A stretch of 64,000 bases of DNA from Geosiphon pyriformis uo1 (taxonomy: Eukaryota > Fungi > Glomeromycota), in assembly GCA_016748015.1 (NCBI GenBank), contig JAAOMT010000470.1:175788-239787 (forward strand), in the 5' to 3' direction. The notes beneath the pieces are model-generated. The model searched no databases and had not been told where the DNA came from. It was given only the letters and a program-made list of their open reading frames with translations. Below are positions 8,371 to 57,624 of this stretch, piece by piece; position 1 is the first letter of the stretch; each line of letters starts with the position of its first letter. The translations under genes were made by a program, and so were the position numbers.

Positions 8371-9190
8371 TATTACAGGTAATTATTTGGGGTCTCAAAG
8401 CAAATAACAAATTCATAACTTGGTGCTCAATTGATATACCAATGTTAATTACTGAAGATGGTTTGTATCTGAAGATGTTAGATAAGTTCTTTGTATAATG
8501 AACAGAGAATTAATAGTTGTTTTCAGTAGCCTCCTGAAATCACAATTCTATCAATTTTTTTTTGGCTTGGTGGTCAGCAATCCTCTGGTAAGTAATTTAT
8601 AATTCTTATACATGTTCTACTCACTTGCAGAGGTCTTTTACCAGGCAATCCTTGATGTCAATAATTCAGCACTTAATCCTTAATCAATTTAGTAAACCAC
8701 AAAAAGAGATAATGATAAAACAAAATAAAAAAAAATAAAGAAAATAAAGAAATAAGCCAAGGCAATTTTGTTAAAGTTAGTATTTTGTCAATAGCCATAA
8801 TCAAGAGTTATTGTTCTAGTGTGGTTAAGTATGAATTTCTATCAACATGAAGTATTGATAGTGGAAAGTGGATTAAGATAGTGAATAATTATTTATTGAT
8901 ATTTGTAATGTAAAAGGTTGCTTAGATCAAATCTAAACTGAGAAGTCTCTAACTAAAGGATTCTGCTCTTTTCTATTTCTATTACTACTGTTATATATAC
9001 ATATTTGAAATTCCTCAATTTCTTAATTTTTCACACCAAGAATCCTTTGCAATTCCTTGTACAAGAATCCTGAAATTTCTGGAATTCTGCAATTCTTCTT
9101 GAGAAAAATCCTGAAATTTTACATTTACTACAATTATTTCTGATTGGTTAATTTATGTGCTAATATACTTCCTATGTTCTATAAGTAACA
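8371..9190 (-). repeat. 3' LTR of C
   Basis: TATTAC...GTAACA; homologous to 27440-28313 but with fewer array units. Confidence 0.92.
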
Positions 9191-9204
9191 TTATTTTCTC
9201 TTTT

Positions 9205-9870
9205 TTAATATTGAGCTTCATCAAAATCTCCCAAATTTCCTAACTCTAATTCTTTGTCTTTGAGTATTTCTTGAACTTTTTTTTCGAGAATTACTTGAAT
9301 TATTTTGTTTTGTAATTTTTTAAATTGGGTGTTGGTTATTTTTTCCATTTGGTTAACTGTAATAAAGTCCATTTCTGGATTAAGTAAAATTTCCAGTTTG
9401 TCTTAGAATCCAGCATGCAATCTATAGATGGTTCTTGCTTGTGTTGTTAGATTGTTTTTTTCCATAAATTGTTTTAATTGTTGCAGTATTGTTGTGTTGA
9501 ATAATTGTTTTGTTTTATCTGTATATAAGTTCTGAATATTCAAGTGTTATCCCAAGTGGAAATAACAAAAGTTTCTTGGAAATTCGTGTATTCACTATTT
9601 CCATGTTTCTTTGATCAACTCTTAATATGTGGTAATACTTGTTGGTTCTTCTATTGCTAATTTTATTTTCAGAACCCTTTTGTTGATAGTGTTTTCTGTT
9701 TTTCTTTGACTTTTGTATTTGGGTATCTTTCTGGTATCTTGGTATTGAATGGTTTGTTGGTTGATAGTAATTTCTATATTCTGTTTTTGAATCAGTTGGA
9801 AGATTTGTTGTATTAGTAAGTGCATGTTGTTAGTGATTTCCATTTTTCTAAAGTCTTCTATTGCATCTAC
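9205..9870 (-). pseudogene. C ORF3 (unknown accessory protein)
   Basis: MEITNNMHLLIQQIFQLIQKQNIEITINQQTIQY... homologous to the ORF3 of A, D, E and F; ends FDEAQY*. Confidence 0.75.
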
Positions 9871-9903
9871 TATGTTTTTATATTCTCTTTTTATTGTTCA
9901 ATT

Positions 9904-11281
9904 TTACGTATTCAGTCCAATGATTATAATTGGTTCCAGATCTTGTGGAATCTCCTCTGATTGAACTAGTATTCTCTATACTCCTAATTGTGGAATATTA
10001 CTGATAGATGGTGACACTATATGGTAATATGATTTCAGTTAATTACTATGTGCTGTTTTGGCTAAGATTTTGTTGTTCCATCTTAATTTATAAGCTCTAT
10101 TTCCAAGAATTTTTTCTATGTAAAATGGTTTGTCTCATTTGGGGTTAAATTTTCCACTCCATTGTTTTTCTGCTTTAATATGATGTAAAAGTACTTTGTC
10201 TCCAATTATGAATTCAACTGGTTTATTTGGTAGTTGGTTATTGTGTCTTTCTTTTTGTTTTTCTTGTGATTTTTAAATGTTATCAGCTGCTTTTCATCAT
10301 TTGTTTTCTAGTGTTTCCATTAAGTCATATGTTTTTCTTAGCAACATTTCTTAAAAATTGTCTTCAATTATTGGTTTTGTTAGATAAGTGCTGACTTTTA
10401 TTTTAACTAGTAATATTGCTGTTCTACTATATACTAATTCAAATGATATTGCTTGTGTAGTGTCTTGCTTTATTGTCTAATAAGCAAATAATATTAATGG
10501 TATAATTAAGTCCCATTCATCCTGGTTTTTTTGGCTGATTTTGGCAATGGCTTTACACAATGTTCTATTAAACCTTTCAACTAACCCATTTGTTTGTGGA
10601 TGGTATAGTAATGATAATGGTCTTTTTATTCCAAATCTTTGACTTAATTCTGCCAATATTCTATTCACAAAATGAGTTCTCTAATCTGATAATATTTCTT
10701 TTGGATATTCATGTTAACATATTGAATCTTAATAAATAAATTTACCAATGGATTCTGCATCTACTCTTTGAATGGCTTTTTGCTTCTGGCTATTTTGTAA
10801 GATAATTCATGACTATTGCAATATATCTGTTGTCTCTGCTAGTGATTGTTAATAGTTTGACTAAGTCAATTCCAATATGGTTAAATGGTTGTCCCACTTT
10901 GATTGGTCTCAATGGTTCATTGGATTTTGTTCCACCTCTTCTTTGACAAGTATCACAATTTTGAACATATTAAATTATGTTTGGATACATTGATGGCCAA
11001 TAGTATCTTTTCTTGGTTTTTTCTATTGTTGCTTCTTTATGGAAATATCTTGCTGTTGGATCTGAGCGCATATTGAACAATATTGTCTCTTTCTCTGGTT
11101 CTGTGATTACTTTGGTTGGTTGATCTGGATTTCTTTTGTTCTTCTAGTAAAGTATATCTTAATGGTTAATAAAATATTTTGATTGTTGTTTTATGTTTCT
11201 TTGTTTTTTTTGAGATAATTTTTTCTTGAACAATTTGGTATTTATATAATGTTGGAGTTGTTGATATTTTTGTATATTCAT
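9904..11281 (-). pseudogene. C integrase (separate ORF)
   Basis: Own ATG at 11281; HHCC region, IGIDL, HPQTNGLVERFN, GPF-type C-terminal module. Confidence 0.9.
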
Positions 11282-11311
11282 CTTTTGTTATATTTTTGGA
11301 TTGAAATGTTC

Positions 11312-14300
11312 TTAGATTTGTCTTATTCACAACAATCCATCAGCATTTCCGTTTTCTTTTTTTTTTTTATAATGTACTGTATAATTAAATGATAAAAGTT
11401 CTATTTTCCATCTAGCATAGTGATTGTCTGCAAATTTTTGTTTTTGAATTGAAATCAATTCTTTATGATCAGTATATACATCAAACTTTTGACTCAAGTA
11501 TTTTTTCTATTTGATAACAGCCCAATAGACAGCTAAGTGTTCCAGTGCTAAAATTCTATAGTTTTTTTCAGCTAGACTTAAGCTTCTACTGGTATAAGCT
11601 ATTGGATGTTCTTTTCCATTTGGTTCTTTCTGTGATAGTACTGCTCCCAATGTTTGGCCTAATGTATTGGTAATAATGATGAATAGTTTGTTGTAATCTG
11701 AATACATCAACACTGGAGCTTAAATAAGTTTTTTTCTCAGTGTGTTAAATGCTTCTTGTTGAGCTTCTGTCTATTTATATTTTACATTCTTAGTTTGTAA
11801 ATAATGGAATGGCTGAGCCAGTTTAGAAAAGTTCTTGATAAAACGGCAATAATATCCAGCAAATCTTAAGAATGCTCTTAGTTCTGTCAAGTTGGTTGGT
11901 ACTGAAAAGTTTTTTACTATTGTGATCTTATCCAGATCCGTTTTGATACTGTTTTTGCTTACAACATGTCCTAAAAACTTGAGTTCTGTTTTTCCAAAGA
12001 AACATTTGTTTGCATTCAATTTCAGTTCTGCTCTTCTCAATCTTTTGAACACTTGTTGAAAATGATATAGATGGTCATTGAATGTCTTGAAGAACACATT
12101 GGTGTTATCCAAGTATACAACTACTGATTTCTATAGTAGTCTAGTATAGACAATTTCCATAAGTCACTGGAAAGTGGCTGGAGCATTCATCAAGCCAAAT
12201 GGCATAACCTCAAATTCGAAATTTTCTTCTTGTGTTGTGAAAGCTGTCTTCTCTTTATCTTCTGATTTCATGGCTACTTGCCAATAACCACTGTCTAAGT
12301 TTAGTGTTAAGAACCATTTCTTTCCTCCAAAAGCATTGAAAAGTTCTTGGATCTTTGGAGTTGGATAGCTATCTCCTTTTGTTATTTCATTTAGTTTTTA
12401 GTAATCCACACAAAAGCAGATTTTTTCATTTTTTTATGGACTAGTACCACTGGTAATGACTATAAACTCATTGATGACTGAATTAGCCTATTGTTAAGCA
12501 TCTGATTGATTTCTTGACAAATGATCTCATGGCTAGCTGGTGGTATTCTGTATGCTCTCTGTTTAATTGGCATTGTATTTCCAGTCTTAATTTGATGTTA
12601 AATGATGTCAGTTCTGCCAAATTTGTTTTCACTGGCAAAGATGTCATTGAAATTGTTAAATAACATTTTGAGCTGCATATGTTGTAGTGAATCTAAGTTT
12701 CCCATGTTCATTTGTTCTAATTGTTCTGATTAGAGCAAATAACATTTATTTCGTCCATATATTGTTTGTGATGTAATATCCACATATTCACAAAGTTGTG
12801 AAAAGTCTGGAATGATGTCTGGCAGTTGGTTTTTAATTTTAGTGGTTAAGTATTCAATGGTTGTTCTTTCTGGTATCCTGATGATATCTCCTGTGTTGTT
12901 GTAGATGGAAATTTTTATGCAACTGTGATTCTTGGCTGGTATGTGTAAATTGACTAATCCAATCTCTCCTAATTCGCAAAGTTTTGCTTCTGCCTCAAAA
13001 ATTTAAACCTGATTCTTTACTTTTCTTTCTATAACTACCATGTACTAGTCATATGGTGAAATAGAAATTAATTGATGGGTGGAGATAATTTTTTCTTTGT
13101 TAACAATTTTTTTCTCTGCCATATTAATAGATACATCTATTCTATCTGTTGATTTAAATTCCTGTATTCTTCTTGCTGTTATCCCTAGTTCTTCCATATT
13201 TCTTATTAACACTAACTAAGCTATTTTTACCAGAGGTAGGAATATTGCCTGCGCTATCTTTTTATTTGACTCTATAATATGTGCTTTTTCTGAGTCATTT
13301 TGTAGCATAGCAATGATATTTTCTACATATCCTGTGTTAATTATTCCTCTTCTGATGTTAATTCCCTTTTTGGCTAAGCTGCTTCTAGATGCTAACTGAA
13401 TTATTGTTGTTGCTGGAATTTCTAATACTATTTTGAGATCAATGTAGATGCACGAATGGGGTTCCAATTTAATGGGATTTTTTCTTGGATATCTCAGATT
13501 AAACCCTGTATCAGTATTGTGTGCATGTTTTGACATAATATCTTTATTGTTATCACTGAATCATTTCAGTTTCTGCTCCTTGGTAAGATTAGAGAGTGCA
13601 ATATATGTTTCTGGGTTTAAATTGGAGTTCGAATTATTGTTATTTTTATTGTCATATTAAGCAGAGCTGAAACTGTTATTTTCATCATTGTCATTATCAG
13701 AGTTTGAATCAGAATTGAAAGTTAATTTTGATTCTGATGCACAGCTGTTGATTGGTTTTTCCTCTTCTGAGATTGTGTAAATCATGCGTGTTGGTAATTG
13801 TAAATGAGATCACACATATTACAATATTGAAAGTTACATAGTATGAAACAGTAGTCACATAGCCTTGTATTTATTTTTTCCAGACATTGTTCTTGTTCTT
13901 CTCTTGTTGGTGCCAAGTTTTAATAGTGCTCATAAAATTTCTCTGGGTCTGCTTTAATATCCAAAAAGATGTCTGAATTGAAGATAAGGACTATGTTGAC
14001 TGGTTCTGAAGGGTTGTTCTTTATCTTCAAAATCTCACTGGGTAAAGTGCCTTCTATTTTGGCATTGGCCATCTGCCAGATCTCATCTTCATCATGTGGG
14101 TAGCCATCCAAGTGAGAGATTGCTCAGTGCCAGGCAACAGTAATAGGTGTTCCTTAACTTACTTAGTCACTGATAAGAATTGTATACTGGCATAAAGCAT
14201 TATATGTTCTTTCTCGACCAGGAATGTTGTTCCACATTTTTATGTCGAGTAATCATTCACCACAAGCAAGACATGATTCATTGTCCCACTTTTATTGCTT

Positions 14301-15169
14301 CTTTGGGTAGTCATAACATTTTTTATGACACAGCTTACAGTAGTAGTGAGTTTTTGTCCAATAGTCTTTATCAGATGTGATCCAAGCTCTCATAGAGAAA
14401 AGTTTCTTTCTATAGTTCTTGCATTTGAGGGGTATATATGGCAGCTCTTTTATTGGTTCTCATGAATACTCTTTTTTCTAGCCACTAGTTATTTCTTTTG
14501 TGGCAGTGGTTTCTTTGGGTGGGTTTTTTTCCTTCTTTTTTTCTTTTTCTTTGTTGGTTTTTTCTCATTCCCAGATTGGCAGTTTGTCTGGGCCATTGTT
14601 AATTTTTCAGATGTGGTCTGCATTCCAGATAAGTTTTTCTCTTTGTTTTCTTTTTCTGTTGTTGTCTCAGGAAAGTATTGGCAGTAGTTTGTTGTGGTTC
14701 TCGTCAGCCCACAACACTTGATAGGCTTTCTAGGTAGGTTTTTTTTTTTCTTTCTCGAAGTCAATGAGTGGTCATGTTATAGTGCTGGGTTTAAAATGGC
14801 CACATATTGTTGGTATTTGTGTGTGTTAGCCATTTTGACTGATTTACAACTTTTGTGTTGTCCAGTCAAGTATTGCATTTGTTTTGGACAGTCAGTTATT
14901 ACCAATAAGGGCTTGGTACTAAGTAGCTTCCATGACTAAGACTTTGGTTGGTACTATAATTCCATTAACTTCAATAGAGAAATCATTTATTTTACCAATA
15001 AGAGTTTAAGTCATTCCATCAGCTGTAATGATTCTGGTGCTAGTAGTGCAGTCAACTCAACAATTTAATTGATTCATGAATTGTTTGGTAATTATGCTGC
15101 CAGCTGATCCACTATCTAGTATCAGTTTGATGGACTGACCATCAACTTTGGCATCAATATACATTATGG
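11312..15169 (-). pseudogene. C pol, 3' part: protease (from the interruption), Cys-rich domain, dUTPase 13140-13536, RT, RNase H
   Basis: LILDSGSAGSII near 15100; TGFNL/SRSSL/KIAQ dUTPase motifs; YLDN RT; EHPIAYTSRSL RNase H. Confidence 0.9.
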
Positions 15170-16148
15170 TGTTACCAACTGAAACTTGAAATATTAATTA
15201 ACATAATATTACCCTTATAATTTTTATTATTAAATTAGCATATATTATCATTCAAATTATCACTTATTATTTAATCAAATTATTGAATATTACCAATTAA
15301 TTAATAATCCAATTTGTACTATAGAAATTAGGATGATCAAATTACACAATACTCCGAACCATTTAATATTCAAGAGTTCACTAAAATTTGTAAAAATTTG
15401 CCTAAATAATTAATAGTTCACCAAAATATTTAATAGTTCGCAGAAATAACTTGTAAATTTGCCGAAAGGTATCTTTAGTTTGTCGAAACCATAGTAAAAA
15501 AAATAGTTCAAATTCATAGACTAGTATTACAACAAGTTGTATAAAAGAAGAGCTTTTTTCTTTGAGAAAATGTATTCTTTACCTTTAGATATCTTACTTG
15601 AGACTTATTAATTAGAATTGTTTTCACAAAAATGAAATAAAAATCAAATAATTCAAAAAGTCAACTTTCTTAATTATTGCACTTAAAAATTCCCAAAACC
15701 CAACTAACGTTTTGAAATTAATTAGCTACCAATTTCAATAAACTGTTAGTGACTCCAGGCCTGGATAGAAAACGTTTCCCTTGACAGAATTCTATTTCTT
15801 TTACATTTCTTTTATTTTTCTTTTATTTTTTTATTAAATTCATTTGGGTAGCCTACAGACAAGATTCCTGTAGAAGAGTTGACTTTCACAGCAAAGTAAC
15901 TACACATTTTTAGTAAGCTTTCAGATGAGCAATTCCTGGGAAAGAGTTGACATTTACTACAATGTAACTACACAAGTAACTGGTATAGAATTGGCCATTC
16001 CACTCATAAGTCCAGCAGTTCAAATTATAGGAGATAATTTGAAAATAAATTCAGTTATTGGAGGTTCAACCACATCCAGAAAACGTGAATTTACAGCAAA
16101 CAGGCATCAACAACCATTAAGAAAAGAGACCAAAAACCTCTGGTAACA
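15170..16148 (+). repeat. 5' LTR of F
   Basis: TGTTAC...GTAACA; about 20-bp TTCGCCGAA-like array 15375-15488; TATAAAA near 15540. Confidence 0.95.
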
Positions 16149-16194
16149 TTTGGTGCTCTCTCACGAAAATAACACAGTAACAACAACTTCAAAA

Positions 16195-19100
16195 GTGGTG
16201 ACTTAAACAGATTCAAGAACTCTAGAGTATTATCAGTCAATCTACACCCACTGCAAGCAGAGATTTAACATTCCAGACGGAATTGAAACATTCAAGAAAA
16301 CACTTTACCAGTACATTGAAAATTGCATCAACAATTATCTTCTTGAAAACTACAATATTTCAGAAGTTAGACACAACTTATATGAAAGCTTAATACATTA
16401 CTCTCGTCTAAACACTTAGGATTTTAACAGTCAAATACTTGAAACATACTTCCAAGAACTCAACTTCAATATCATTCAGTATTGTGAAAAAAATTACCCA
16501 GTAAAACAGAAATTTTCTCTTAGTTTTGAATCGGAAACAGAAGAAGGAAAAAAAAAAGGAAACAAAAACTCAGAACTACTCCCAATACACCTAAAACCAC
16601 TGCCAAATATTTACAAACTCCAGAACAAGAAACCAGCTTTAAATTACCACTCTTAATTACACCATTTCCAGCTTTACTTGCTTAGCCGCAAACACCAAGT
16701 TTACCACTTATTTGGTTTTCAAGAATAGAAGATTTTCAGTCACCCAAAAGCCCTATTCAACAACAGGAACCAATATTAACCAGCACAAACCTTATTGACT
16801 ACTTAGCAAAAAATCAAAGTGAAGAGACCAAATCAGAACAAAAAACAGAAGACTCAAAAAATGAAAAAAAAATGGCCTCCACATATATCACAAAAATCCC
16901 TGAGTTCACAGGAGAAGACAATGAAACCAGTTCTCAAGAATGGCTTGACAAAGTCTCAAAAGCAGAAGATGCAAATGGTTGGAATGCTGCCAGAATGTTA
17001 AAAACAATTCCATACTTCTTACAAGGAACAGCTGGTAAATGGTTTGAAAACTTGGAAGCCCTGCCAGAAAACTGGAAAGCATTCAAAACTGCTTTTCTAG
17101 AACAGTTCACTGACAATAACACTTTCATTACTCTTTCAAAATCGGTTTTGAAATATCAAGCAAGAACCAAGTGAATCAATTATGACCTATCTTGGGAAAT
17201 TCAACAAACTGCTTAGAAGAATTTGCCAATTGGAAACCAATGAATACTACTCTAATGCACAAATCTTGGATCAATTCATTGCTGGACTAAAAGACAAACT
17301 TATCAAAAAAGTTTGCCCACATGCACCAGAAGATTTAGCCACTGCTATTCAACAGGCAAAAAACTATGAAATGGCCATGGAAAAAGCCAACTGTACCAAA
17401 CTTGTTAATCTGGCTATTGGAGAAACCAGTTCAGCAGCTGAAGAAAAAATTGACCAATTAACCAAGAAAGTTGAAAACTACTTCACCAACCAACAGCAAC
17501 AACAGCAGCCATAGCAATTACAACAACCACAAAGATACCAACCCCCACAACAACACAATCAAAACAAATTCGGACCACTATCCAACAACCAAATCCAAAA
17601 TTGTCACTATTGTGGAATTTTAGAACACTGGAAACATGATTGTAGAAAATTGCAACAAGACCAACAACAGAGGAACAATCAATGTTATTCCCAACCACAA
17701 CAATCATATTATCCACCACCACCAGCTCAATATTTACCAAGGCCACAATATCCAAACCACTATTATCAACCTGCTCTACAACCAATCCAACAACAGTATC
17801 AACAACCATCCACACCACAATATCAAGTGCTAGCCAGAAAATTGATTCAATATAATCAATTTACATCACAAAACCGTTTTTCAACAAACAACAACAGATT
17901 TAATTTCAACAACTAATTAACCACTTAAAATTCGAATCAACATAGGTCCACACATTATCACACTCAACCCAGTTATCTTACAATACCAGAGGAATCAAAT
18001 TTTCAGCAAACTGCACTTTTTGAAGGTGAAGCTGCAGCACCAAGACAAAACCCTTCCAACAATATTATCTCACCAGCCAGAATTGCCCGAAATGCCAATC
18101 TTTCAGACATCTTTCCATTCGAATTTGAAGCCAATGAATTACCATCTCTACTCAGCAATGTAGCAGTTAACAAACAAAAAGCTATTACAGCAATGTATAC
18201 TGAAGCTGAAGTAGAAGGAAAACCAATTCGCTTAATATTAGACAGTAGATCTGCTGGAAGTATTATCACCTACCAATTAATACAACAGCTTCAACAAACT
18301 GTTGACAAACCAGCTCAAACTGTTATCATTACAGCAAATGATATAAAGAAGACACCAGTAGGAGAAATTGATAATTTTCTATTCACCATTGATGGAATCA
18401 CTATTCCAGTTAAAGTCCTAGTCATGGATGCACCCCAATATCAAGCTTTTGTTGGAAATGATTGGCTTCTCAAGACCAATGCAAATTTAGATTGGGAAAC
18501 TCAGGAATTAAAAATCTTATATCAAGGACAACACACCATAATATCTGTTATGTGTGGAACTTTCAATAAACAATCAAAAAAAGCCCTAGTACTTGAATTT
18601 GAAGAAGAAAAAAAAATGCCACTCACTGAAACCTACATGGCTCTTGAATTAACATCCAATTGGGCTGAGGAAACAAAACAAGAAATCTTTGAAGAATTAA
18701 GAAGATGGAAAAAAGTTAGATATTCTACACCAGAACCATGAAAACAATCACCCTACATTCCACTTAAATACAGAAATTGTAACAAAAAACTTTTATCAAT
18801 GGAAGCCTGCATTTTGCCTAAAGAAAAATATGAAAATCATACTTGTTATTACTGCAAGACTTGCCACAGAGAACGATAGGGCCATCTAATAAAAAGAAGT
18901 GAAAAATGGGACAACACCCCTTGTTTGACTTGTGGAGATATGCTACCAGAAGAATGCAATTGGATTGATGTAGCAATGAAAGGAGAAGTCTGCAATCAAA
19001 TTTGCCAATATGCTTTATCAATTTCAGAAAAAGTTAAAAGAGGAACACTCTTTAATGCAGCATACAACAGTGCTTTTAACAAACTTTATCACTACTCCCA

Positions 19101-21751
19101 TAATGCTGAGATGATTTTTGACCTAGCAATGACATTAGTTAATAAAGCTACCAAAGAAAATGTCTGTCAAATAAAAGAAGCAGAATACATTGAATACACC
19201 ATGGAATTAGCTGAATTCGATTACGAAGATAAAGTAGAAGTCTACTACCAAATTGCAAGTTACACCTACCCAACCCAAGAAGCTCAAATTCAATAATTAG
19301 AGCAAATAAACATTAGGCTATGTGAAGAATGCATTATGCCTTGTAATGAACAGTGGTGTCCTGAATGCTATACTCTTAGCATTCCACTACCAATTAAAGA
19401 TAACCAGTATGAAATCGAATTTGGAATACAGAATGAAGAAGTCCCAGTAACTTTTATTTATCTCACCGAAAACCAACTGGCTATAACACTCAAATACTTC
19501 AACAATAAAGGACAAGGAATCAAGCCTGAAAAAGCCCACAAAATTGACGCTGAATATGATTTAAGATATCCAGAAAGAAATACCCTCATTCTTCAACCAA
19601 AATCTTTTACAAGAATTAATCTAAAAATTGCCTTTGAAATCTCACCAGGAATCATGATGCAAATTGTCTCCTGATTCTTCCTAGCAAGCAAAGAAATCAA
19701 TATAAAAGAAGGAATTATTGATGCTGGATACACTGGAGATATTACAGTAATGCTTCAAAATGAAACTAACAAACCATTCAAGATTGAACATGCTGAAAAG
19801 ATTGCCCAAGCTATTTATTTACCCTTAATCAACATTTCGGGTTTGCAATTAGTCAATCAAAGAGAACAATTAAGGAAAAGCGAGAGAGGAACCCAAGATT
19901 TTGGTTCAACTGGACGATTCATGATTCCAGTTAATATAGCCCTCAATACACAGAATGAATCTCACCAGATTCTCAGACTTCCACAACCAATAACCATTTC
20001 ACCCTTTGGAGAATATCACGAAATTTATACCTGTAGAAAACCCACCACTACTCAACAAATTTTCGAAGCCAATGAACAAATTTGCATGAAACATGGCATC
20101 TCAATCCCAAATATTTATATTCCAAAAGGAATGAAGAAAGTTCGAATTACTTTTTACAACCTCAATCATCACCCCATCATTTTACTAAATAATTTGGAAA
20201 TCAGAATTATTCATAGCAAAATCTTTCAACAAGAATTACCTCAAACAGTTTTAAATTTTTCAGAAATTATTGGACATTCTCTCCCAAAATTCAATCTAAA
20301 ACCCAGTGCTGAAAACTACCACATTGTTATTGGAAAGTTATTCTGAATTAACATAGGACAACTAGAGCCCCAACAACAGAATCAAGCAGTTAATTGCAGA
20401 ACATACAGACATATTTGCTAAAAACAACAATAATTTAGGAAGAACTGATTTGGTTCAACATCAAATCTATACAGAAGATGTCAAATCTAGACGACAACAA
20501 GCATACCAAGTTGCTCTAGAAAGCCATCAATTTATCCGAGAAGAAATTCAAAGGATGCTCAACAATAGGCTCATCCAACCGTCAATGAGCTCATGAGCTT
20601 CACCAGTAGTACTTGTTAAAAAGAAAAATAGAAAAATTTGATTTTGCATTGACTATAAACAATTAAACAATATCACTATTGGAGATGTCTACCTCTTTTC
20701 TCGAATTGATAATATGTTAGATGCTCTTGGAAAATCCAAATACTTTTCAATACTGGATTTAGAAAGCAGATACTGGCAAGTTGCCATGGACCCCAAAGAC
20801 CATACCAAAACAGCATTTACCACACAAGAAGGGAACTACAAATTCAATGTAATGCCCTTTGGATTGTGTAATGCCCCAGCAATATTCCAGAGACTCATGG
20901 ATGTTGTATATACTGGATTTTTTTGGAAATCAGTAGTTGTCTACCTTGATAACACTGATGTTTATTCACCATCTTTTGAACTCCATCTAATTCACCTGCG
21001 AGAAGTTTTTCAACAATTACATAAAGCAGAACTAAAATTAAACATTGAGAAATGCCATTTTGGAAAAACAAGTTTGGCTTTTCTTGATCACATTGTTAAT
21101 AGAGAAGGAGTTAAACCAGATTCAGGAAAAATCAGTGCTGTTAAAAATTTCAAAGTTCCATGGAATACTACAGAATTAAGAGGATTTGTTGGATTAGCTT
21201 CCTATTATTGAAAATTCATTAAAGGATTCTCAGAGATCACAAAACCTCTTAACCAACTCAATACCAAAAATGCAGAATACAAATGAACAGAAGAACACCA
21301 AAATGCATTCAAAAAACTCAAAGAAAAGCTCATTACAGCTCCAATTCTTGCCTACTCAGACTTCAATAACTGATTCCAATTAGCCACAGATGCCTCATAT
21401 ACTGCTTTTGGTGCTATCTTATCACAATTAGATGACAGCAGCAATGAATGAGTAATTGCTTACGCCAGTAGAACACTAAAACCAGCCGAGAAAAACTATC
21501 CAGCAACAGAATTAGAAACTGCAGCAGTAATATGAGCCTTATACCACTTTGACCTTTATTTCAAACCTAAGGAATTTGATATTATTACTGATAATATTGG
21601 ACTCAAATGGTTACAAAACAAAAACATGAAGTTGAATGCAAAACAAACCAAATAGACAGAATTTTTGGCAAACTACCAATATATAGTACATCACAAACCA
21701 GAAAAACTCCACACCAATGTTGACTGTCTTTCCAGAATAAGACAAGATTAG
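16195..21751 (+). pseudogene. F gag-pol (Gag, CCHC, protease, Cys-rich domain, dUTPase, RT, RNase H)
   Basis: MASTYITKIPEF capsid start at 16872; LILDSRSAGS; dUTPase 19520-19918 (RGTQDFGSTG); YLDNTD; ends CLSRIRQD*. Confidence 0.92.
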
Positions 21752-21799
21752 AAAACACAAATCAACACTCAACATAACCAACCTAACAACCAACAAACA

Positions 21800-23185
21800 A
21801 TGAATTCAAAAGACTACAACAATCTCAAACAATATTTGAAGACATTAACAATCCCAACAGATTGGTCTTCAGATGAAAACCATCAATTACAACAACAAAC
21901 CAAACAATATTTCCTACACAACAACATTATTTATCATTAAAATTTCAAAAACCCAGACAAACCACTCAGATTAATACAAGAACATGAAAAAGAGACTATA
22001 TTATACAACATGCACTCAGATCTTTCATCAGTACACTTTGGAAAAGACAGCACTATTCAAAGAACACTAGAATACTATTTTTGACCCTAAATAAGAAAAA
22101 ACATACATTAATATGTTAAATGTTGTGATAGTTATCAAAGAAAAGAAGGAATACGTCCTACTGAACCTTTAAATCCAATCAAAGTTGGACAATCTTTTGA
22201 CCGAGTTGGTATCGATTTAGTCAGACCACTACTTATTATTACGCAAGGAAACCGATACATAACAGTAGCAATAGATTATCTTACCAAATGGCTTGAAGCC
22301 AGAGCTATTCAATGAGCAGATGCAAAATCAGTAGCAAATTTTATTTACAAAGACATTATTTGTAAACATAGATGCCCAATTGAACTTTTATCCGATCAGG
22401 GGACACATTTTGTGAACAACCTAATACAAGAAATTTGTAAATGATTTAATGTCAAAAGACTTTTATCTTCGCCCTATCATTCACAGACAAATGAATTAGT
22501 AGAATGTTTTAACAGAACATTGTGTGAATCACTAGCCAAAGTTTCAACAGATTTTGAGCAGGAATGAGATATCTTTATTCCATCAGTGTTACTAGTATAT
22601 AGAACACTAAAACAAGATACAACAAAACACATACCATTTGACCTTACTTATGAAAGAACAGCAAAACTACCAATTGAATTCATAGTAAAAACATACCCAG
22701 TACAACCAATTACAGAAGAAAACTTACAAGAAACACTTCAGCGAAGAGCTTATACTCTTCTCAGTACTTTAGAAGGAAAAAGACAAATAGCAGCCACTTA
22801 CATTGAAAATTCACAAACCCAACAAAAAAAAAGACATGACAACAAACTGCCATCAGTTACAAACGAATTTAAAGTTAGAAATAAAGTTTTTTTACACTGA
22901 ACTAAGGCTGAAAAACAATGGAATAGAAAATTTGAACATAAATAGGATGGACCATTCTTTGTTTATGAAATCTTAGAAAATGGATCATACAAGTTAAGAC
23001 TTGATGGGAAAATACTAGCAAAAGTTGCACATGGAGATCGATTGAAACATTATCACTCCAGAACACATCCTAAACCATTAATTCCACAAATTGGTACACA
23101 TTCTCCTTTAATTAACCCCAAAGATATTCCCCAAAATTTGGAACCAATAGTTGTTATTGAACAACATCCCAACTTGAACACTTAA
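21800..23185 (+). pseudogene. F integrase, separate 462-codon frame
   Basis: ATG at 21800 after a 48-nt A/C spacer; MHSD..HF, VGIDLV, LLSDQGTHF, GPF module; TAA at 23183-23185 in the same frame. Confidence 0.9.
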
Positions 23186-23302
23186 TTACTATAGAGTCTC
23201 CTATAAAAATTCAAAAACAATCCTACAAAAATAACATAAAAATTTACATATCCAAAAATAATTTTATTTAGGAAAATTTTTAGCTTTGTAAAAATTATTA
23301 TA

Positions 23303-24009
23303 ATGACTATTTCACAAAACATTTAACAATTATTTCAAAAACTAATGTTAGCTTTAAAAACAATACCTGAATTATCTATTACTATTACAGGAAAACATAT
23401 TAATTATACTCAAACAGAAACAGCCACAATCTTATCCCCAAAATCACAAAATTATCACCCTTATAAAAAAACATTAGAAGTTATTCTGGAATTCACCTAC
23501 CAGAACTTTTGAAGCTTGTTTTAAAAGAAAATTTGTCATTCCCACCTATTGACATTCCACCAAATGCCACAATTCAACAAAAACTTCAACAGTGTTTTAA
23601 TGAAGAAAACAGTAAATACTCTCCAATTTATAGATATTTTCACATTGGAAAAACACTGCATGAACAAAAACTGGAACTTACAACAGCCAATCTTACAAAA
23701 GAAGCCATTTAGAAACAACTCTACAATGAATTTAAGACTATGACTGGACCAACAAACAGTTGCTACAAACTTAGAGCAGCTCTTAAATTTTATGACCTAT
23801 TTCACACCTGTGAAAATGTCCTACAAAACCCAATTTTACAACCACTGAAGATCCAATACATTGGAAAACTCACAAAACTGAAATTTCAACAATTTTCAGA
23901 CCAAATTTTTTCAGTAATTTTGGATTATTATCTGGAATGTACAGACAGTACTTGGACTTCGACAGAGCTCAGTCTTGAGGAGAAGATTATGTTACCAACC
24001 AAAACTTGA
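23303..24009 (+). pseudogene. F ORF3 (unknown accessory protein, runs into the 3' LTR)
   Basis: MTISQNI.QLFQKL...ITITGKHINY...YRYFHIGKTL...AALKFYDLF...YIGKLTKLKFQQFSDQI, with one frameshift near 23509. Confidence 0.72.
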
Positions 24010-24955
24010 GATATTAATTAACATAATATTACTCTTATAATTTCTACTATTAAATTAGCATATATTATTGTTCAAATTATCACTTATTATTTAATCAAAT
24101 TATCGAATATTACCAATCAATTAATAACCTGATTTGTATTATAGAAATTAGGATGATCAAATTACACAATACTTCGAACCATTTAATATTCAAGAGTTTG
24201 CTGAAATTTGTAGAAATTCGCTAAAATAATTAATAGTTTACCAAAATATTTAATAGTTTGCAGAAATAACTTGTAAATTTGCCGAAAGGTATCTTTAGTT
24301 CATCAAAACCATAGTAAAGAAAATAGTTCAAGTTTATAGACTAGTACTACAACAAGTTGTATAAAAGAAGAGCTTCTCTCTTTGAGAAAATGTATCTCTT
24401 ATTTTTAGATATCTTACTTGAGACTTATTAATTAGAATTGTTTTCACAAAAATGAAATAAAAATCAAATAATTTAAAAAGTCAACTTCCTTGAAAATTCC
24501 CAAAACCCAACTAATATTTTGAAATTGATTAGCTACCAATTTCAATAAATTGTTAGTGACTCCAGGCCTGGATAGAAAATGTTTCCCTTGACAGAATTCT
24601 ATTTTTTTTACATTTCTTTTATTTTTCTTTTATTTTCTTATTATAATCATTTGGATAGCCTACAGACAAAATTCCTGTAGAAGAGTTAACTTTCACAGCA
24701 AAGTAACTACACATCTTTAGTGAGCTTCCAGATGAGCAATTTCTGAAAAAGAGTTGACATTTACTACAACATAACTACACAAGTAACTGGCACAGAATTG
24801 GCTATTCCACTTATAAGCCCAGCAGTTCAAATTATAGGAGATAATTTGAAGATAAATTCAGTTATTGGAGGTTCAACCACATCCAGAAAACGTGAATTTA
24901 CAGCAAACAGGCATTAACAACCATTAAAAAAAGAGACCAAAAACCTCCAGTAACA
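23990..24955 (+). repeat. 3' LTR of F
   Basis: Direct repeat of 15170-16148. Confidence 0.95.
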
Positions 24956-24959
24956 ATGG

Positions 24960-27380
24960 TTATGAGTTTCTCTTTGAGGGTAGCTCCATTGAACAATAGG
25001 ACTTCTGAGAGTTCATTAATTTCAAAGAGAAATATAGTAACAAGTGACTCATCTTTCATAATGGTTACTGGTAAGATGTTGTTAGTAAGTATGGATTGTT
25101 GATTGGACTCTGGGTTGTGGGATTGGGTGTTTTCTAAGGTAACCAGAAAACTTAAATAGTGTTGGGAATTCGAATTTTGGGTGGGCCCAATTCTCAAATT
25201 TTGTGACCGTAATCCTGTTAAATAGTGTGAAAAGCTAGGGATCAGTTAGTGAACAACCATTGCTGATCTTTAGTTTTAAGCAATTCTGGATCTCGGATTG
25301 CCTGATGTCATTTGAGCTGGGTTTTGGAGTAGTGTCTAAATTGGCTGTGGTTGATAAATTACTGGTGACTGCAGTTGATAGATTGTTTGGTGCTGTGGTT
25401 AATAAATTGCTGGTGTCTGTGGTTGATAAATTGAAGGTACATATACTGGTGGTTAATAGATTGGCTGCTGTGTCATTGGCTGGTAAGTGGGTTGATATTG
25501 ATCTTGATTTGGGTAATGGTTCAGGAGGTTTGAAATTGGTGATCAGAGTTTCTGTATTGATTTTCTGATTGTGAGTTACTATACAAATGGCAATTGACTC
25601 AGATATGGTCTTGTTTACTACAGTTGTAGCAGACATGCATCTTAGGCTGCCATGGCTGATTGGATGATAATGATGATCATAACTGATTTTGAAAATGATT
25701 TGTGTTTCCTGAATTATTGTGTTATTGTGGTGGTTGATAAATTGCCCAATTGTCAGCTAAGTATCTCTTTAATTTCTGATTGATTGAATTACTAAATTGT
25801 TTTAATTTGGAATCCAATTCAGATGATCTATTTATTACTAAATTAATGGCTTGGGTATGGTTGGCTTCTAATTTTGCTGTTTCAAAATCTCTGATGTTGA
25901 TAACTACAGCTTAAAGATCTGCTGAGTGTAATAGACATATGTATTGGAGAATGCTACTGCACAATCCTCTAATAAATTGATTAAGAATTTGTGGTGCTGT
26001 AAAATAGTCAGCTTGAATTGCCTGAATTTGGTGTAGGTTTCTATGGAAGCATCTTATATATGTAGTGACTGCTTCAGTTTCCCTTTGTTTCATGGTGGTG
26101 AAAGTGTTGACCAGGTAATTGATACTATTATTGTTACTAAAGTATCTCAAAAACTCTGTTTTGAATGTGTTAAAGGTGACCAGTTTGTTGATCAAGCTTT
26201 AATACCAGGAATTGGCAGTGTCTTGTAAGAAGTATGGAATTGCTTGAAGTGCTCTGGCATTGTCTCAATTATTAGCAGTAATGACTTTTGTGACATCATT
26301 AATTTATGCTTGGGCATCATCTTTTTTGCTGGTGAATTTTTTGAGTTTGGTGATTGAAGCATAGGCCATTAGATTCAAGTTTAATGGTTGTTGTGGTAAC
26401 AGTTGAGATTGTTGCAGCTGTTAAAGTGGCTGTTGAGATTGTTAAAATGGTACTGGCAGTGGTTGGATTTACTGATCCAGTTGCTGTAATGGCTAACCAA
26501 TTGGTTCAACTGGTTAATTAATTATGATTTCTGGAGGTACATGTTGTTGATTAATTAAATCAGAGTTTCAATTATTCTGATTTGGCGGTGTTTGAATATT
26601 TGGAGCTTTGATTTCTGGATTTTCTAAATTTGAATTTTGTGGAGTTTGACTGTTTGGAGTTTCAACTTCTGGGTTTTCTGGGATCAGGTTTTGGTAAGTA
26701 AATTCCTGATCTTCTTCTTCTTTTTCTGATTTTGTTACTTCTCATGGGTCAAAAATTCCAAAATTGGATTGAGATGGCAGTGATTGATATCCTGATGATG
26801 TTGGTAATTGTGATTTAAATTCTTCAAAATATTCACTATATATTCCTAATAGATCTGTTTTCCTTTGTTTACTTTAAAATAGAAGTTGGCCAAACATTGA
26901 TGTCATATTTGATGTGAATGCATCTACTGACATTATGTTGATGGCACTTCCAGATGTATAGTGATAGGATGAGTTGTTTGGTGATTCAACTCTGGTTTTC
27001 TTTCAAATAGGTGGTTGTATTTATTTTGGTGTTACAGCTGGTGTTTGTAATCTTCCTTTGTCTTTGTTTATGTAAGTGATGAGGAATTGTTGTTGGGTGT
27101 ACCTTTTAATGGTTTGGTTTATTTTTCTGATGATTGGTGTGAAACTGTAATTTCTTGGTAAGCTGATATGTTGAAACAATTCTGTATAGAAATTTTCTCT
27201 TGTGGATTCGATGTTAACTGTTTCTCCTAAGCAATCTGTGCTTTTGTCATTAATGTAGAAGTTAAAGGCTGATTCTGCTGAGAAATGGTTATTGTTTAAT
27301 CCTAATTGTTGGCTGTACTATTGAAACAAAGATTTGGTGAATCCTAAATAGTTGGTTCTTATAATTTCTAATTCTGCTAC
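24960..27380 (-). pseudogene. C gag (5' part of gag-pol)
   Basis: Retrotransposon gag core (FLRYFSNNNSIN...QILNQFIRGL), knuckle near 25600, Q/P/Y-rich linker. Confidence 0.88.
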
Positions 27381-27439
27381 TTTTGGAATAATTGTTGGTA
27401 CTGTTCTCTATAGGATTATATCTTACAAGAAGCACCAAA

Positions 27440-28313
27440 TATTACAGGTGATTATTTGGTGTCTCAAAGCAAATAACAAACCTGTAACTTGGTGCTCAAT
27501 TAATATACTGATGTTAATTACTGAAGGTGGTTTGTATCTGAAGGTGTTAGTTGAGTTCTTTGTATAATGGACAGAGAGTTAATAGTTGTTTTCAGTAGCC
27601 TTTTGGAATCACAATTCTATCAATTTTTTTCTCGGCTTGGTGGCCAGCAATCCTCTGGTAAGTAATCTGTAATTCTTGTACATGTTCTACCCACTTGCAG
27701 GAGTCTTTTACCAAGCAATTCTTGATGTCAATAATTCAGTGCTTAATCCTTAATCAATTTAGTAAACCACAAAAAAAGATAAAAATAAAACAAATAAAAA
27801 AAAACAAAAAAAATAAAGAAATAAGCCAAGGCAATTTTGTTAAAGTTAGTATTTTGTTAATAGTCATGATCAAGAGCTATTGTTCCAGTATAATTAAGTA
27901 TGAATTTCTATCAACATAAAGTGTTGATAGTGGAAAGTAGATTGAGATAGTAAATAATTATTTATTGATATTTGTGATATAGAAGATTGCTTAGATTAAA
28001 TCTAAACTGAGAGGTCTCTAACTAAAGGATTCTGCTTTTTTCTACTTCTATCACTATTGCTATATATACATAATTGAGATTCCTCAATTCCTTAATTTTT
28101 TACACCAGAAATCTTAAAATTTCTGGAATCCTACAATTTCTTTAGAAGGAATCTTGCAATTCTGGAATCTTGCAATTCCTTGTACAAGAATTCTGAAATT
28201 TTTGGAATCCTGCAATTCCTCTTAAGAGGAATCCTGAAATTCCACATTTACTATGGTTACTTCTGATTGGTTAATTTATGTGCTAATATATTTCCTATGT
28301 TCTATGAATAATA
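27440..28313 (-). repeat. 5' LTR of C
   Basis: Adjacent PBS; homologous to 8371-9190. Confidence 0.92.
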
Positions 28314-36606: not shown

Positions 36607-37456
36607 TGTTACAGTTGATTAATTGAGGTCTCAAATCCAATAACAAACTTGTAACTTGGTGCTCAAAAAGCTATTTCCATTAATGATATTCTGAAAGTAT
36701 TGTATCTAAAGATTTTGATGGAGTCTTTTGTATAATGAACAGAGATTCAATAGTTGTTTTATCCATAGCTTCCCAGACTCGCAAGTCTGTCAATTCTTTT
36801 CTCAGCTTGGTGGCTGGCAATCCTCTGGTAAGTAATCTGTATTTTCTGTACATGTCCTACCCACTCGCAGGAGTCTTTTACCAGGCAATCCTTGATATCA
36901 GTAATCAGCACTTTTAATCAATTGGTTAGTGCACAATAACAAAATCACAGAAAAATAAAAAAAATAAAGAAATCTAAAGAAATAAGCCAAGGCAATTTAC
37001 AGATTAGTATCCCGTCAATAGCTGTGATCAAGAGCTATTGTTCCAGTATGGTTAAGTATCAATTACTATCAACATAAAGTGTTAATAGTGGGGAGTGGAT
37101 TGAGATATGAAATAATTATTTATTTGATGATTGTGTTTCTAGGCTAAGGATTCAGTAGTATCAATTCTGTCTTTTCTGTTTCTAACACTACTGCTATATA
37201 TACATATTTGAGATTCCTCAATTCCTCAATTCCTTGTGACAGAAATCTTGGAATTCCTGGAATCCTGCGATTTCTGATGAAAAAAATCCTGGAATTCTGG
37301 AATCCTGCGATTTCTTGTTGAGGAATCCTGAAATTTCTGGAATCCTGCAATTTCTCTAAAAGGAATCCTGGAATTCCACATTTACTATGTCTACCTCTGA
37401 TTGGCTAATATCTACTGACTAATAATACTATATTTTCCTATATTCTATGAGTAACA
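36607..37456 (-). repeat. 3' LTR of E
   Basis: 850-bp direct repeat of 53767-54616; 40-bp-period array 37241-37378. Confidence 0.95.
37241..37378 (-). promoter_or_regulatory. U3 enhancer-like array (40-bp period, GGAATCCTGGAATTC(C)TGGAATCCTGCRATTT core) upstream of the LTR TATA box
   Basis: Units start at 37241, 37281, 37321 and 37361; TATATA at about 37195-37202; the same array occurs in the A, B and C LTRs. Confidence 0.65.
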
Positions 37457-37470
37457 TTATTCCTTTCTTT

Positions 37471-38121
37471 TTAATATTGAGCTCCGTCAAAATCTAATTC
37501 CTTTAATTCTCCCTCTTGAATTATTTCTTGAACTTCTTTTTCGAGTATTACTTGTGTTATTTGACTTTCTAATTCTTCAAATTGGGTGTTGGTCATTTTT
37601 CCCAATTGATTATTTGTAACTGTATCCATTGCTGTGTTGAGTAAAATTTCTGGTTAGTCTTAAAATCTCATATATAGCCGATAAATGCCTTAAGCTTGTG
37701 TGGTTAGATTGTTCTTTCCCACAAATTGTTCCAGTTGTCTCAGTATTGTTGTGTTAAATAACCATTTTGTTTTGTTGGTGTACAAATTCTGGATATTTAT
37801 GTATTGTCACAAATGGAAATGACAATAGTTTTTCGGAAATTGTTGTGTCCACCAAGTCCAATTTTCTCTAGTAAGTTCTTGGTGTAGTCCGACTATTTGT
37901 TGTTCTTTTATGGCCAATTTTATCTTGGTTATGATCTTGTCAACAACATTTTCAAGTCTTTTCTGTACTTTGTGTTGTGGTATCTTTGCCATATTTTTGT
38001 AATGAATGGTTTGTTGATTGATTGTAATTTCTATTTCCTGGTGTTAGATTAATTGAAAAATTTGTTGGACTAGTGAATGGATATTGTCCATAATTTCTAT
38101 TTTTCTGATCTTTTCTGTCAT
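37471..38121 (-). pseudogene. E ORF3 (about 215 aa, unknown function)
   Basis: Single frame with point stops: IHSLVQQIFQLI...NYCHFHL.QYINIQNLY...TQA.GIYRLY...NQLGKMTNTQFEELESQI...FDGAQY*. Confidence 0.78.
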
Positions 38122-38154
38122 GTCAACTATGTTTCTTATATATTCTTTTGTCAA

Positions 38155-39537
38155 TCAATTGGACGTGTTGTTGTTGATGATAATGATTGGTTCCAGATCT
38201 CATGGAATCTCATCTGGTTGGACTAGTATTCTCTGTACTCCCAATTGTAGAATATTATTGGTAGATGCTGATGCTATCTGGTGATATGGTTTCAGTCAAT
38301 CACTATGTGCTGCTTTGGCTAAGATTCTGTTGTCCAGTCTTAATTTGTAAGCTCTATTTTTTAAAATTTCTTCTATGTAAAATGGTTTGTTCTATTTGGG
38401 ATTAAATTTTCCACTCTATTGTTTTTCTGCTTTGGTATGATGTAGTAATACTTTGTCTCCAATTTTAAATTCAACTGGTTTGTCTGGTAGTTGACTATCA
38501 TGTCTTTTTTTCTGTTTTTCTTGTGACTTTTGAATATTATTAGCTGCTCTTCTTCATTTGTTTTCCAATGTTTCCATTAAGTCATATGTTCTTTTCAGCA
38601 ATGTTTCTTGAAAATTCTCTTCTGTTATTGGTTCAGCTAAATATGTATTAATTTCTCTCTTTACTGATAATGTTGCTGTTCTCCCATACACTAATTTAAA
38701 TGGTGTTGCTTGTGTAGTATCTTGTTTCATTGTCCAATAAGCAAATAGTACTGATGGTATGAACAAATCCCAATCATTCTGGTTTTCTTGGCTGAGCTTA
38801 GCTATTGCTTTACACAATGTTCTGTTAAATCTTTTGACCAATCCGTTGGTTTGTGGATGGTATGGTGATGATAATGGTTTCTTAATTCCGAATCTTTGGC
38901 TCAATTCTGTTAATGTTCTGTTCACAAAATGAGTTCCTTGGTCTGATAATAATTCTTTTGGACATCCATGTTGACAAATCAAATTCTGATGAACAAATTT
39001 GGCAACGGATTCTGCATTTGCTCTTTGAATTGCTTTTGCCTCTGGCCATTTAGTGAGATAGTCCATAGCTACTACTATGTATCTGTTTCCTCTGCTGGTG
39101 ATTGTTAATGGTCTGACTAAATCAATTCCAATATGGTCGAATGGTTGTCCCACTTTGATTGGTCTTAATGGTTCACTGGGTCTTGTTCCTCCTTTTCACT
39201 GACAAGCATCATAATTTTGAACATATTGAATGATGTCTGGATACATTGATGGCCAATAGTATTTCTTTCTGGTTCTTTCTATGGTTGCTTCTTTGTGAAA
39301 ATGTCCTGCTGTTAGATTTAAGTGCATGTTGAATAATATGGTCTCTTTTTTTAGCTCTGTAATTACTCTGGTTGGTTGATCTGGATCCCTTCTATTTTTT
39401 TGATAAAGTATATTTTGGTGAGTGATAAAATATTTTGATTGTTGTTTGATACTCTTTCGTTCCATTTGAGATAAATTCTTCTTGAACTGTTGAATAGTTA
39501 TATAATGTTGAAGTTGTTGATATTTTTGTATGTTCAT
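38155..39537 (-). pseudogene. E integrase, separate 461-codon frame
   Basis: ORF-track pieces 39196-39537 (MNIQKY...MH...GHF...DACQ) and 38554-39153 (IGIDL, SDQG, HPQTNGL) are in one frame. Confidence 0.93.
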
Positions 39538-39601
39538 CTTTTGTTGTATTTTTTGTTAGTATTGTTCTGGTTTTTGTTATATTTTTGGATTTGAAATGTT
39601 G

Positions 39602-46244: not shown

Positions 46245-46292
46245 TTTGGTGCTCTCCCACGGAAATAACACAGCAAAAAAAACAACTTCAAA

Positions 46293-51914: not shown

Positions 51915-52173
51915 AAAACAAAACCAACACCCATCTGAATTAACAGCATCAAAACAACAAACAATGAACTCTGAAAACTACAACAATCTCAAACAATATT
52001 TTCTACACAACAACATTATCTATTATTAAAATTTCAAAAACCCAACCAAACCACTCAGATTAATACAAGAACCAGAAAAAGAGACCAAATTTTTTCAATA
52101 ATTTTGGATTATTATCTGGAAATAACAGACAGTACTTGGACTTCGATGGAGCTCAGTCTTGAGGAGGAGGTTA

Positions 52174-53704: not shown

Positions 53705-53766
53705 TTTTGGATGGTGTTTGTTGATGCTGGTTTTCTGTAGGATTATACCTTACAGGGAACACCAAA

Positions 53767-57429: not shown

Positions 57430-57442
57430 TTATCCCCTCCTT

Positions 57443-57595
57443 TCAAAATTGAGCTTCATCGAAATTGAAGTTAATTTTTTCATTAAATTCTAAGTTACTA
57501 TAGTGGTTTAATACTGTATTATTAATTTGTTGTTGTAATTCTTGAAATTGCGAATTGGTAAGTCGTCCAATACTGTTGGTTGTTATTATGTTCAT
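57443..57595 (-). pseudogene. H deletion scar: 50-aa mini-ORF joining the integrase-position ATG to the ORF3 C-terminus
   Basis: MNIITTNSIGRLTNSQFQELQQQI...NFDEAQF*; the tail aligns with the ORF3 ends of A, C and E. Confidence 0.75.
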
Positions 57596-57624
57596 GGTTG
57601 TTGTGGCAGGTGGGTTGGTAATTT

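Follow-up and report, generated by a model that had tools for sequence, protein, structure and literature searches.

Element F and its neighbours

The stretch analysed here, 64,000 nucleotides of Geosiphon pyriformis uo1 contig JAAOMT010000470.1 (positions 175,788 to 239,787 of the forward strand; hereafter the window), is an array of long terminal repeat (LTR) elements, decayed and partly nested. Our subject is element F, a Ty3/Gypsy-type retrotransposon in which the frame that begins with Gag ends in a stop codon behind RNase H (RH), while integrase (IN) has an AUG-started open reading frame (ORF) of its own, followed by a third ORF (ORF3). We are very confident that this layout is real. The parts of F are:

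15170..24955, + strand: element F; LTRs 91.4% identical, ends TGTTAC..GTAACA, 4-bp target duplication ATGG
15170..16148, + strand: 5' LTR (TG...CA, 979 nt), preceded by ATGG
16151..16168, + strand: primer-binding site, TGG-start, 2 nt past the LTR
16195..16871, + strand: N-terminal Gag extension, apparently GUG-initiated, AUG-depleted
16872..17916, + strand: Gag capsid from a conserved Met, with CCHC knuckle; frameshifted in F (Pfam on the ORF of element G)
17929..18600, + strand: aspartic protease (PR) region (Asp_protease_2, 3e-7)
18601..19460, + strand: Cys-rich domain (CxxC repeats), in every window family
19462..19911, + strand: dUTPase (Pfam dUTPase, 7e-21 on G)
20390..21751, + strand: reverse transcriptase (RT) and RH (RVT_1, RT_RNaseH), ending in TAG at 21749-21751
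21752..21799, + strand: spacer, 48 nt, A/C-rich, non-coding, with no G and no ATG
21800..23185, + strand: stand-alone IN ORF, 461 codons, with zinc finger, DDE core, GPF motif and 9 internal stops
23303..24010, + strand: ORF3, about 230 codons, from ATG 23303 through the polypurine tract (PPT) into the 3' LTR
23958..23989, + strand: pre-PPT motif and PPT, conserved
23990..24955, + strand: 3' LTR, followed by ATGG

Pfam and tblastn agree on the order Gag (CA, CCHC), PR, Cys-rich domain, dUTPase, RT and RH, then IN, then ORF3. The initial annotation described F as structurally complete, which is true of the list of parts; nevertheless F is dead, with 22 stops over three frames (nine in IN, eight in RT-RH and five in PR-dUTPase) and frameshifts in gag, ahead of RT and in ORF3. 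The same plan had been proposed for copies C, D and E and, in deleted form, for G and H, and this is borne out by the RH stop (LSRxRxx*), which falls at one codon in all six window copies that bear the junction. These belong to three LTR families, previously said not to align visibly; their LTRs indeed have only low-complexity stretches in common. The stop is TAG in F and G, and TAA in C, D, E and H. The other elements with mapped limits are:

45276..53152, + strand: element G, of F's family; frame-continuous Gag-Pol, IN/ORF3 deleted, nested in E
8373..28311, - strand: element C, second family, host of F; IN ATG at 11281, ORF3 from about 9843
36609..54620, - strand: element E, second family, host of G; IN ATG at 39537, ORF3 at 38091-37474
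56555..64000, - strand: element H, third family, IN/ORF3 deleted; IN ATG at 57595

F sits within the protease region of C, and G within E. The internal deletions of G and H run from early IN to the ORF3 tail; both copies retain the IN ATG and the ORF3 tail despite losing nearly all of IN and ORF3. TGGTG sites like the one at F's primer-binding site are also found in G, H, E, C and A.

The two LTRs of F differ by 67 transitions and 4 transversions, those of G by 43 transitions and 1 transversion. In the LTR pairs of F, G and H, transitions occur in every C context (CA 57, CT 36, CC 22, CG 18) and transversions are nearly nil, which suggests that a directed C>T process reaching beyond CpG has acted on all three. 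Because the pairs differ almost solely by transitions, the F and G insertions are probably young and were later heavily C>T mutated.

Integrase is split from RNase H among relatives

Within the window, the spacers between the RH stop and the IN ATG measure 48, 49, 30, 29, 64 and 29 nt in F, G, C, D, E and H, respectively. They use all three frames and are A/C-rich, leading into ATG-AA. In contigs from a DNA run, which may be the window's own source, 19 contigs diverge from F after the first two letters of the RH stop (loose ends at 21750), and summed depth drops about 30-fold across the F spacer and recovers within IN; no alternative letter occurs at the RH stop among the variant rows listed (40 of 45).

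The relatives were located by DNA pattern, the junction playing no part in retrieval, and the analysis went on with the best 80 of 542 candidates. Among the 82 loci fetched, 32 contain both RH and IN. The two are split in all 31 metagenome loci that have both, 28 of them with an unbroken IN, and the one fused locus among the 32, L081, belongs to an element that is only distantly related (30% identity). Spacer frames 0, 1 and 2 are represented by 10, 11 and 10 of the 31 loci; the spacer is at most 100 nt in 24, start and stop overlap (-20 to -1) in six, and one has a spacer of +2. When 33 intact integrases chosen from 120 matches were aligned with F, all 33 began with Met at F's column; this Met1 is invariant in the 34 aligned sequences, which are 39-54% identical to the first row. 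The context of the IN AUG is strong, with a purine at -3 in 45 of 51 cases and G at +4 in 44 of 51 (one row, L081, is from outside the lineage). A free integrase of 422 residues with the same Met start is also encoded in Rhizophagus irregularis (P0016), where it has several close members. The named proteins closest to F IN are Geosiphon pyriformis gene models, at 57-77% identity across the IN pieces, followed by Rhizophagus integrases at 41-45%; by these matches the host is most likely a Glomeromycotina fungus. A search of a viral contig collection returned nothing close, only two distant loci.

Could C>T decay of dead copies have produced the split? The window LTR pairs of F and G together show 110 transitions against 5 transversions, and shared stops can arise through parallel decay: three internal Gag-Pol stops are common to F and G, and two of them fall where intact relatives have R and W. 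The window by itself is therefore no proof of the split; it is the relatives that prove it. All 31 metagenome relatives are split, mostly with long unbroken ORFs on both sides, and P0016 starts at the same Met. We take these observations to rule out decay as the source of the split, an explanation that we find scarcely credible.

A second possibility is that the RH stop is bypassed by readthrough or frameshifting, giving an RH-IN fusion. The spacers of F and C (48 and 30 nt) are in frame, likely UGA-CUA readthrough sites occur elsewhere in the lineage, and fused members exist. Against this, the spacers of the 31 loci are spread evenly over the frames with lengths from -20 to more than 500 nt, the C spacer carries a further in-frame stop, no common context follows the stop, and Met1 is invariant. 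Bypass is thus largely refuted and, in our judgement, very improbable. In-frame fusion of RH and IN in consensus sequences had been named beforehand as the finding that would overturn the proposal of a lineage with free integrase; the close relatives show no such fusion.

The Gag-Pol reading frame and its start

In G a single frame runs from GTG 46293 to TAG 51912 (about 1,873 codons), interrupted by in-frame stops only, and Gag to RH is therefore one ORF. Pfam finds Ty3_capsid (5e-9), Retrotrans_gag (5e-14) and zf-CCHC on it. The 240-codon extension ahead of the capsid is coding, since differences between F and G are biased by codon position (33/16/55, P=5e-8). It holds two ATGs in F and one in G, against about 12 expected; the G leader has one out-of-frame ATG against 5.4 in codon-shuffled sequence (P=0.011), and the H leader is likewise depleted (P=0.034). 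G has an in-frame stop nine codons 5' of the GTG and no in-frame ATG ahead of the capsid Met.

The motif AAAGTGG lies about 40-90 nt past the LTR in F, G, H and E. In C and A the codon is GTA, which is what G>A decay of GTG would give, and a change from ATG to GTG is impossible by the window's decay. In the DNA-run contigs the second GTG is variable, and the first is not variable among the rows listed. We suggest that Gag translation in the window's families probably starts at GUG, and the leader pattern would fit a weak GUG combined with leaky scanning to the capsid AUG. An extended Gag start of a similar kind is the glyco-Gag of murine leukaemia virus. Alternatively, splicing may supply an AUG to Gag: F, G, E and C have a YAG directly ahead of the GUG, and H and A lack it.

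Contrary to what had been proposed, neither the GUG start nor the dUTPase is a trait of the lineage; both belong to the window's subclade. In the long relatives L020, L053 and L062, Gag is preceded by an in-frame upstream ATG, so the GUG is local to that subclade. All seven copies that retain the region (A, C, D, E, F, G and H) carry the dUTPase, whereas among the 38 metagenome loci of at least 2.5 kb it was hit only in L062.

The Cys-rich domain has no Pfam or PHROG match above noise. A stop inside it is common to F (19294-19300, TAA-TTAG) and G (49446-49452, TGA-TTAG), where H has Tyr; it is most likely the parallel decay of a Trp codon, but it may be a readthrough site like that of the UGA-CUA clade described below. 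Ahead of RT, weak sub-threshold matches to Spuma_A9PTase are seen in H (window 59000-59250, E 0.04) and L020 (E 0.01), and foamy-virus PR-RT chains likewise align from this region.

ORF3

The ORF3 of F is damaged by one stop and one frameshift early and by one later stop, and is 30% identical (E 8e-16) to the intact 230-residue ORF3 of L002, F's nearest relative in both the RT-RH and the IN tree. This F/L002 subfamily is linked to a common 140-residue family at HH probability 90 (E 1.6e-6), without circularity. A match to the family lies 3' of IN in 23 of the 36 loci with at least 600 nt downstream, and the profile collects 613 clusters (50% identity) at E<=0.001. Purifying selection on ORF3, which had been singled out as a check, is visible between E and C, where second and third codon positions differ at 35 and 69 sites (P=1.6e-4; LTR control P=0.82).

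ORF3 does not resemble an envelope protein. None of 132 ORF3 proteins has a candidate membrane segment, scored as mean hydropathy above 1.8 over 19 residues, and the model is small and all-helical (pLDDT 95.7). The family has conserved Arg and Tyr residues and a median pI of 8.8. No Pfam family is common to 20 members examined, there is no PHROG, no PDB sequence match falls below E 0.25, and Foldseek gives no match in PDB or BFVD; the best VIA scores are Z 5.1 (rmsd 3.2, 69 aligned) and 4.9 (rmsd 3.6, 63 aligned). Such a missing fold match does not establish ORF3 as a new fold. The C-terminal part gives a sequence hint of H2TH/uS13 (E 0.95), which is not among the fold matches listed. Atlas leads at 0.91-0.94, a closterovirus coat protein and a phage translation repressor, are leads only. 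We tentatively propose that ORF3 may be a regulator or a nucleic-acid binder, binding being suggested by composition only.

IN and ORF3 overlap in three of 14 junctions and are separated by more than 1 kb in two. An IN-ORF3 readthrough in C, D and E, where an in-frame TGA is followed by a conserved stretch, was set aside: relatives end IN at that point and give ORF3 its own ATG.

Trees and fused relatives

A search for longer proteins returned Glomeromycotina gene models containing RT-RH-IN. Two of these, P0279 and P0281, jump from RH to IN and omit the end of RH and the start of IN; we read them as probably mis-spliced. Six others from metagenome or run contigs (P0283, P0288, P0291, P0293, P0297 and P0321) look fused, and their junctions were read except in P0321. 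In P0293 a linker of 11 residues, against 25-40 in most canonical rows, leads to an IN start that still has its Met.

A clade supported at 94/95, with an unresolved base, is formed in the RT-RH tree (47 of 138 rows) by six fused rows and 27 split ones, the latter including P0279 and P0281. A corresponding clade (SH 100), divided into the same subclades, is found in the IN tree, and two fused rows are nested there with starred support. The preferred history from these trees would be one fission followed by re-fusions. The subclades of the RT tree recur in the IN tree, so the integrase belongs to the element itself; this agreement, from a comparison made without a Ginger reference, lends no support to the idea that IN was acquired from a foreign DNA transposon.

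How integrase might be made

The best overall explanation, to which we give an even chance, is a three-cistron Ty3/Gypsy lineage in which ribosomes restart at the IN AUG and IN stays outside Pol. In the window's families a weak GUG would yield extended Gag-Pol and leaky scanning would reach the capsid AUG. Ribosomes finishing the Gag-to-RH frame would restart at the IN AUG, and reinitiation of low efficiency over a short, G-poor spacer would keep IN scarce relative to equimolar Gag and RT. Free IN would join the particle or the cDNA outside Pol, recruited through RNA or RT binding; RNA-mediated recruitment is modelled on foamy-virus Pol. ORF3 would act as a soluble accessory protein, probably one that binds nucleic acid. 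We favour restart because of proximity (24 of 31 starts within 100 nt, six overlapping), the strong start context and the G-poor, ATG-free spacers of the window; as the specific route of IN expression, reinitiation is a tentative choice, a little short of an even bet on sequence evidence.

Several observations weigh against this explanation. Reinitiation behind a long ORF tends to be inefficient unless a dedicated signal assists it, and none was found in the window. Spacers exceed 100 nt in seven of the 31 loci (159-943); the longest, 943 in L041, lies behind an internal stop due to decay. As the queries used for retrieval were free integrases, what was examined is the nearest 80 of 542 candidates. 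No ORF3 family match is present in 13 of 36 loci, a NUDIX hydrolase ORF (L009:1876-2889, E 1.4e-10) occupies the ORF3 position in one, and F's own ORF3 scores weakly on the family profile (E 0.016), its link going through L002. The six fused proteins lie inside both the 94/95 RT clade and the SH 100 IN clade, and none of 200 bootstrap trees recovers a clade of split elements only, although such a clade is not rejected in the AU test (p=0.24). The initial proposal of a distinct lineage with a free integrase is supported (31 of 31 metagenome loci); that split elements form an exclusive clade is not supported by these trees. The stem-loop described below, which stands ahead of the AUG in a single subclade, would suit internal entry or the leader of a subgenomic RNA just as well.

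IN and ORF3 could instead be translated from subgenomic RNAs made by an internal promoter or by splicing, the spacer being a 5' untranslated region. Spacers of 159-727 nt in six of 31 loci and IN-ORF3 gaps above 1 kb in two of 14 are hard for reinitiation, the strong IN start context suits cap-dependent initiation, and the available parts of the published accounts offer precedents in foamy virus Pol (PMC7828637) and Cer1 CERV (PMC10309623). On the other hand, a branch point with YAG ahead of the IN AUG is found in seven of 41 cases against 7.9 in shuffled sequence, which is no excess and leaves the likeness to a complex retrovirus drawn in the initial annotation unsupported. Overlaps of start and stop (six of 31 at RH-IN, three of 14 at IN-ORF3) would be needless for subgenomic RNAs. 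The IN ORFs are not depleted of AUGs (725 against 660), so ORF3 cannot derive from leaky scanning of an IN RNA. We regard subgenomic RNAs as unlikely, though a serious competitor.

Internal ribosome entry at the IN AUG, through a structured element in one subclade and an unstructured A-rich leader elsewhere, draws on a covarying stem-loop of 39 nt (5' GUGAAAGC, loop CANNGUGA) that ends upstream of the IN AUG, at a distance of 0 to about 30 nt:

L020:5189-5235, + strand: stem-loop
L033:4460-4506, + strand: stem-loop
L013:582-628, + strand: stem-loop
16 further loci, + strand: stem-loop

Compensatory changes occur in seven of 12 pairs, and none of 500 shuffles reaches the score, the RNAalifold structure being derived from the alignment used to score it. 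The 19 matches in 62 sources are all on the + strand and in a single subclade, and Rfam gives no family and one sub-threshold miRNA match. Against a general role in entry, the stem-loop was found neither in the window nor in the other 42 loci searched, and it may instead be a packaging or protein-binding site. We consider internal entry improbable.

Comparison with known systems

The lineage has the features of Metaviridae in its LTR-flanked internal region, primer-binding site and PPT, its capsid and nucleocapsid Gag, and the order PR-RT-RH-IN. The RT of H has its best PDB match in Ty3 (E 2.5e-47), ahead of caulimovirus, foamy virus and HIV RTs, and RT is nested among fused Gypsy-type Pol proteins in a tree built without a Copia outgroup or a curated GyDB/REXdb set. 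The Metaviridae profile of the ICTV, the international committee for virus taxonomy, places integrase within pol and env as the third gene (PMC7879559). Compared with members such as yeast Ty3, the elements described here are alike in LTRs, primer-binding site, PPT, capsid/CCHC Gag, enzyme order and the GPF motif of IN; they depart from the profile (PMC7879559) in that IN has its own ORF and the third gene lacks a transmembrane segment. Because IN lies outside the pol polyprotein, contrary to the canonical arrangement, we file the lineage as a variant derived from Metaviridae and not as a canonical member. The third ORF is not an envelope with a transmembrane domain, unlike that of Errantivirus and other env-bearing Gypsy elements, and the chromodomain that marks chromoviruses at the IN C-terminus was not seen: IN ends soon after the GPF region in the 34 aligned sequences, and PF00385 was not found on close free integrases.

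A dUTPase in fungal Gypsy elements is already known and not new here, judging from the accessible part of PMC2864245. It lies between PR and RT in PosPlaTy3-5, Phanerochaete and Tuber Tmt1 elements, according to the portions available (PMC2864245, PMC6431247); the position is the same, whereas those elements are there described with a fused Gag-Pol or Gag plus Pol, not with a free IN. Foamy virus Pol (PMC7828637, in excerpt) is similar as an enzyme made apart from Gag, with its own packaging route and genomic RNA as scaffold, but there the whole Pol including IN comes from a spliced RNA, whereas here IN alone is separate, and the comparison is functional only. Cer1 of C. elegans, also an LTR retrotransposon, encodes a non-Env accessory regulator of its own, CERV, which in the excerpted account is made from a spliced RNA and drives the export of RNA (PMC10309623). 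Troyka, in the sections available (PMC12440569), is also an unusual LTR retrotransposon with the order PR-RT-RH-IN; it has CG..CG ends, a 3-bp target-site duplication, no GPF/Y motif, a fused IN and animal hosts only, whereas F has TG..CA ends, a 4-bp duplication and a GPF motif. Kuafuorterviruses, from the partial description at hand, are animal elements.

Coupled termination-reinitiation in RNA viruses, as in the calicivirus VP1/VP2 pair, has the start codon at or close to the stop that ends a long upstream ORF. Here, by comparison, no such upstream signal was identified, and the window spacers are 29-64 nt and not overlaps.

The available text of PMC13468544, PMC10508981 and a Rhizophagus transposable element preprint does not mention a free IN, and we found no account of the layout in a literature search that lay outside Repbase, GyDB and most subscription papers. 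We regard the layout as a real variant on the Ty3/Gypsy plan, and probably one not yet published.

Textbook LTR retrotransposons and orthoretroviruses bring IN into the particle fused to Gag-Pol. A large and diverse lineage without this fusion must dose and deliver IN otherwise, and its intact natural copies make dosing and delivery testable. The lineage may also provide a case of polycistronic translation in a eukaryotic nuclear retroelement, and with it come a new RNA motif and a new protein family. The split would explain probably mis-spliced Glomeromycotina gene models such as P0279 and P0281, and pipelines that assume IN within Pol may misclassify these abundant elements.

Additional features of sister subclades

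Two further features were seen in related loci:

L006:2882, L007:870, L028:902, L030:3290, L053:3358 and L065:1585: in-frame UGA-CUA between protease and RT
L020:4356-5166, L029, L033, L040, L041, L044 and L053: extension after RH

The UGA-CUA occurs in six of 19 loci examined, 39-79 codons ahead of RT, and five of the six fall in one clade with a support of 100; at L039:3552 the same context stands in a shifted frame. It is likely to be a readthrough site ahead of RT. A bolder reading, which we think doubtful, would make these elements an undescribed major Ty3/Gypsy branch of mycorrhizal fungi that turned polycistronic and uncoupled IN from Pol with devices differing by subclade (stop-start overlaps, the new structured RNA, UGA-CUA readthrough, paired GUG and AUG Gag starts), ORF3 being a trans-acting factor of new fold that drives restart or delivers IN.

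The extension after RH is acidic and Cys/His-rich, comprises 235-590 residues and belongs to no Pfam family; the hairpin-bearing loci with sufficient upstream DNA carry it. In F, G and L002, ORF3 crosses the PPT and enters the LTR. Just 5' of the PPT, a motif near TTCGCAGGAGCTC is found in the window (23958-23989 and 52142-52173) and in 12 loci; it is conserved across the lineage in differing frames and is probably a cis-acting signal.

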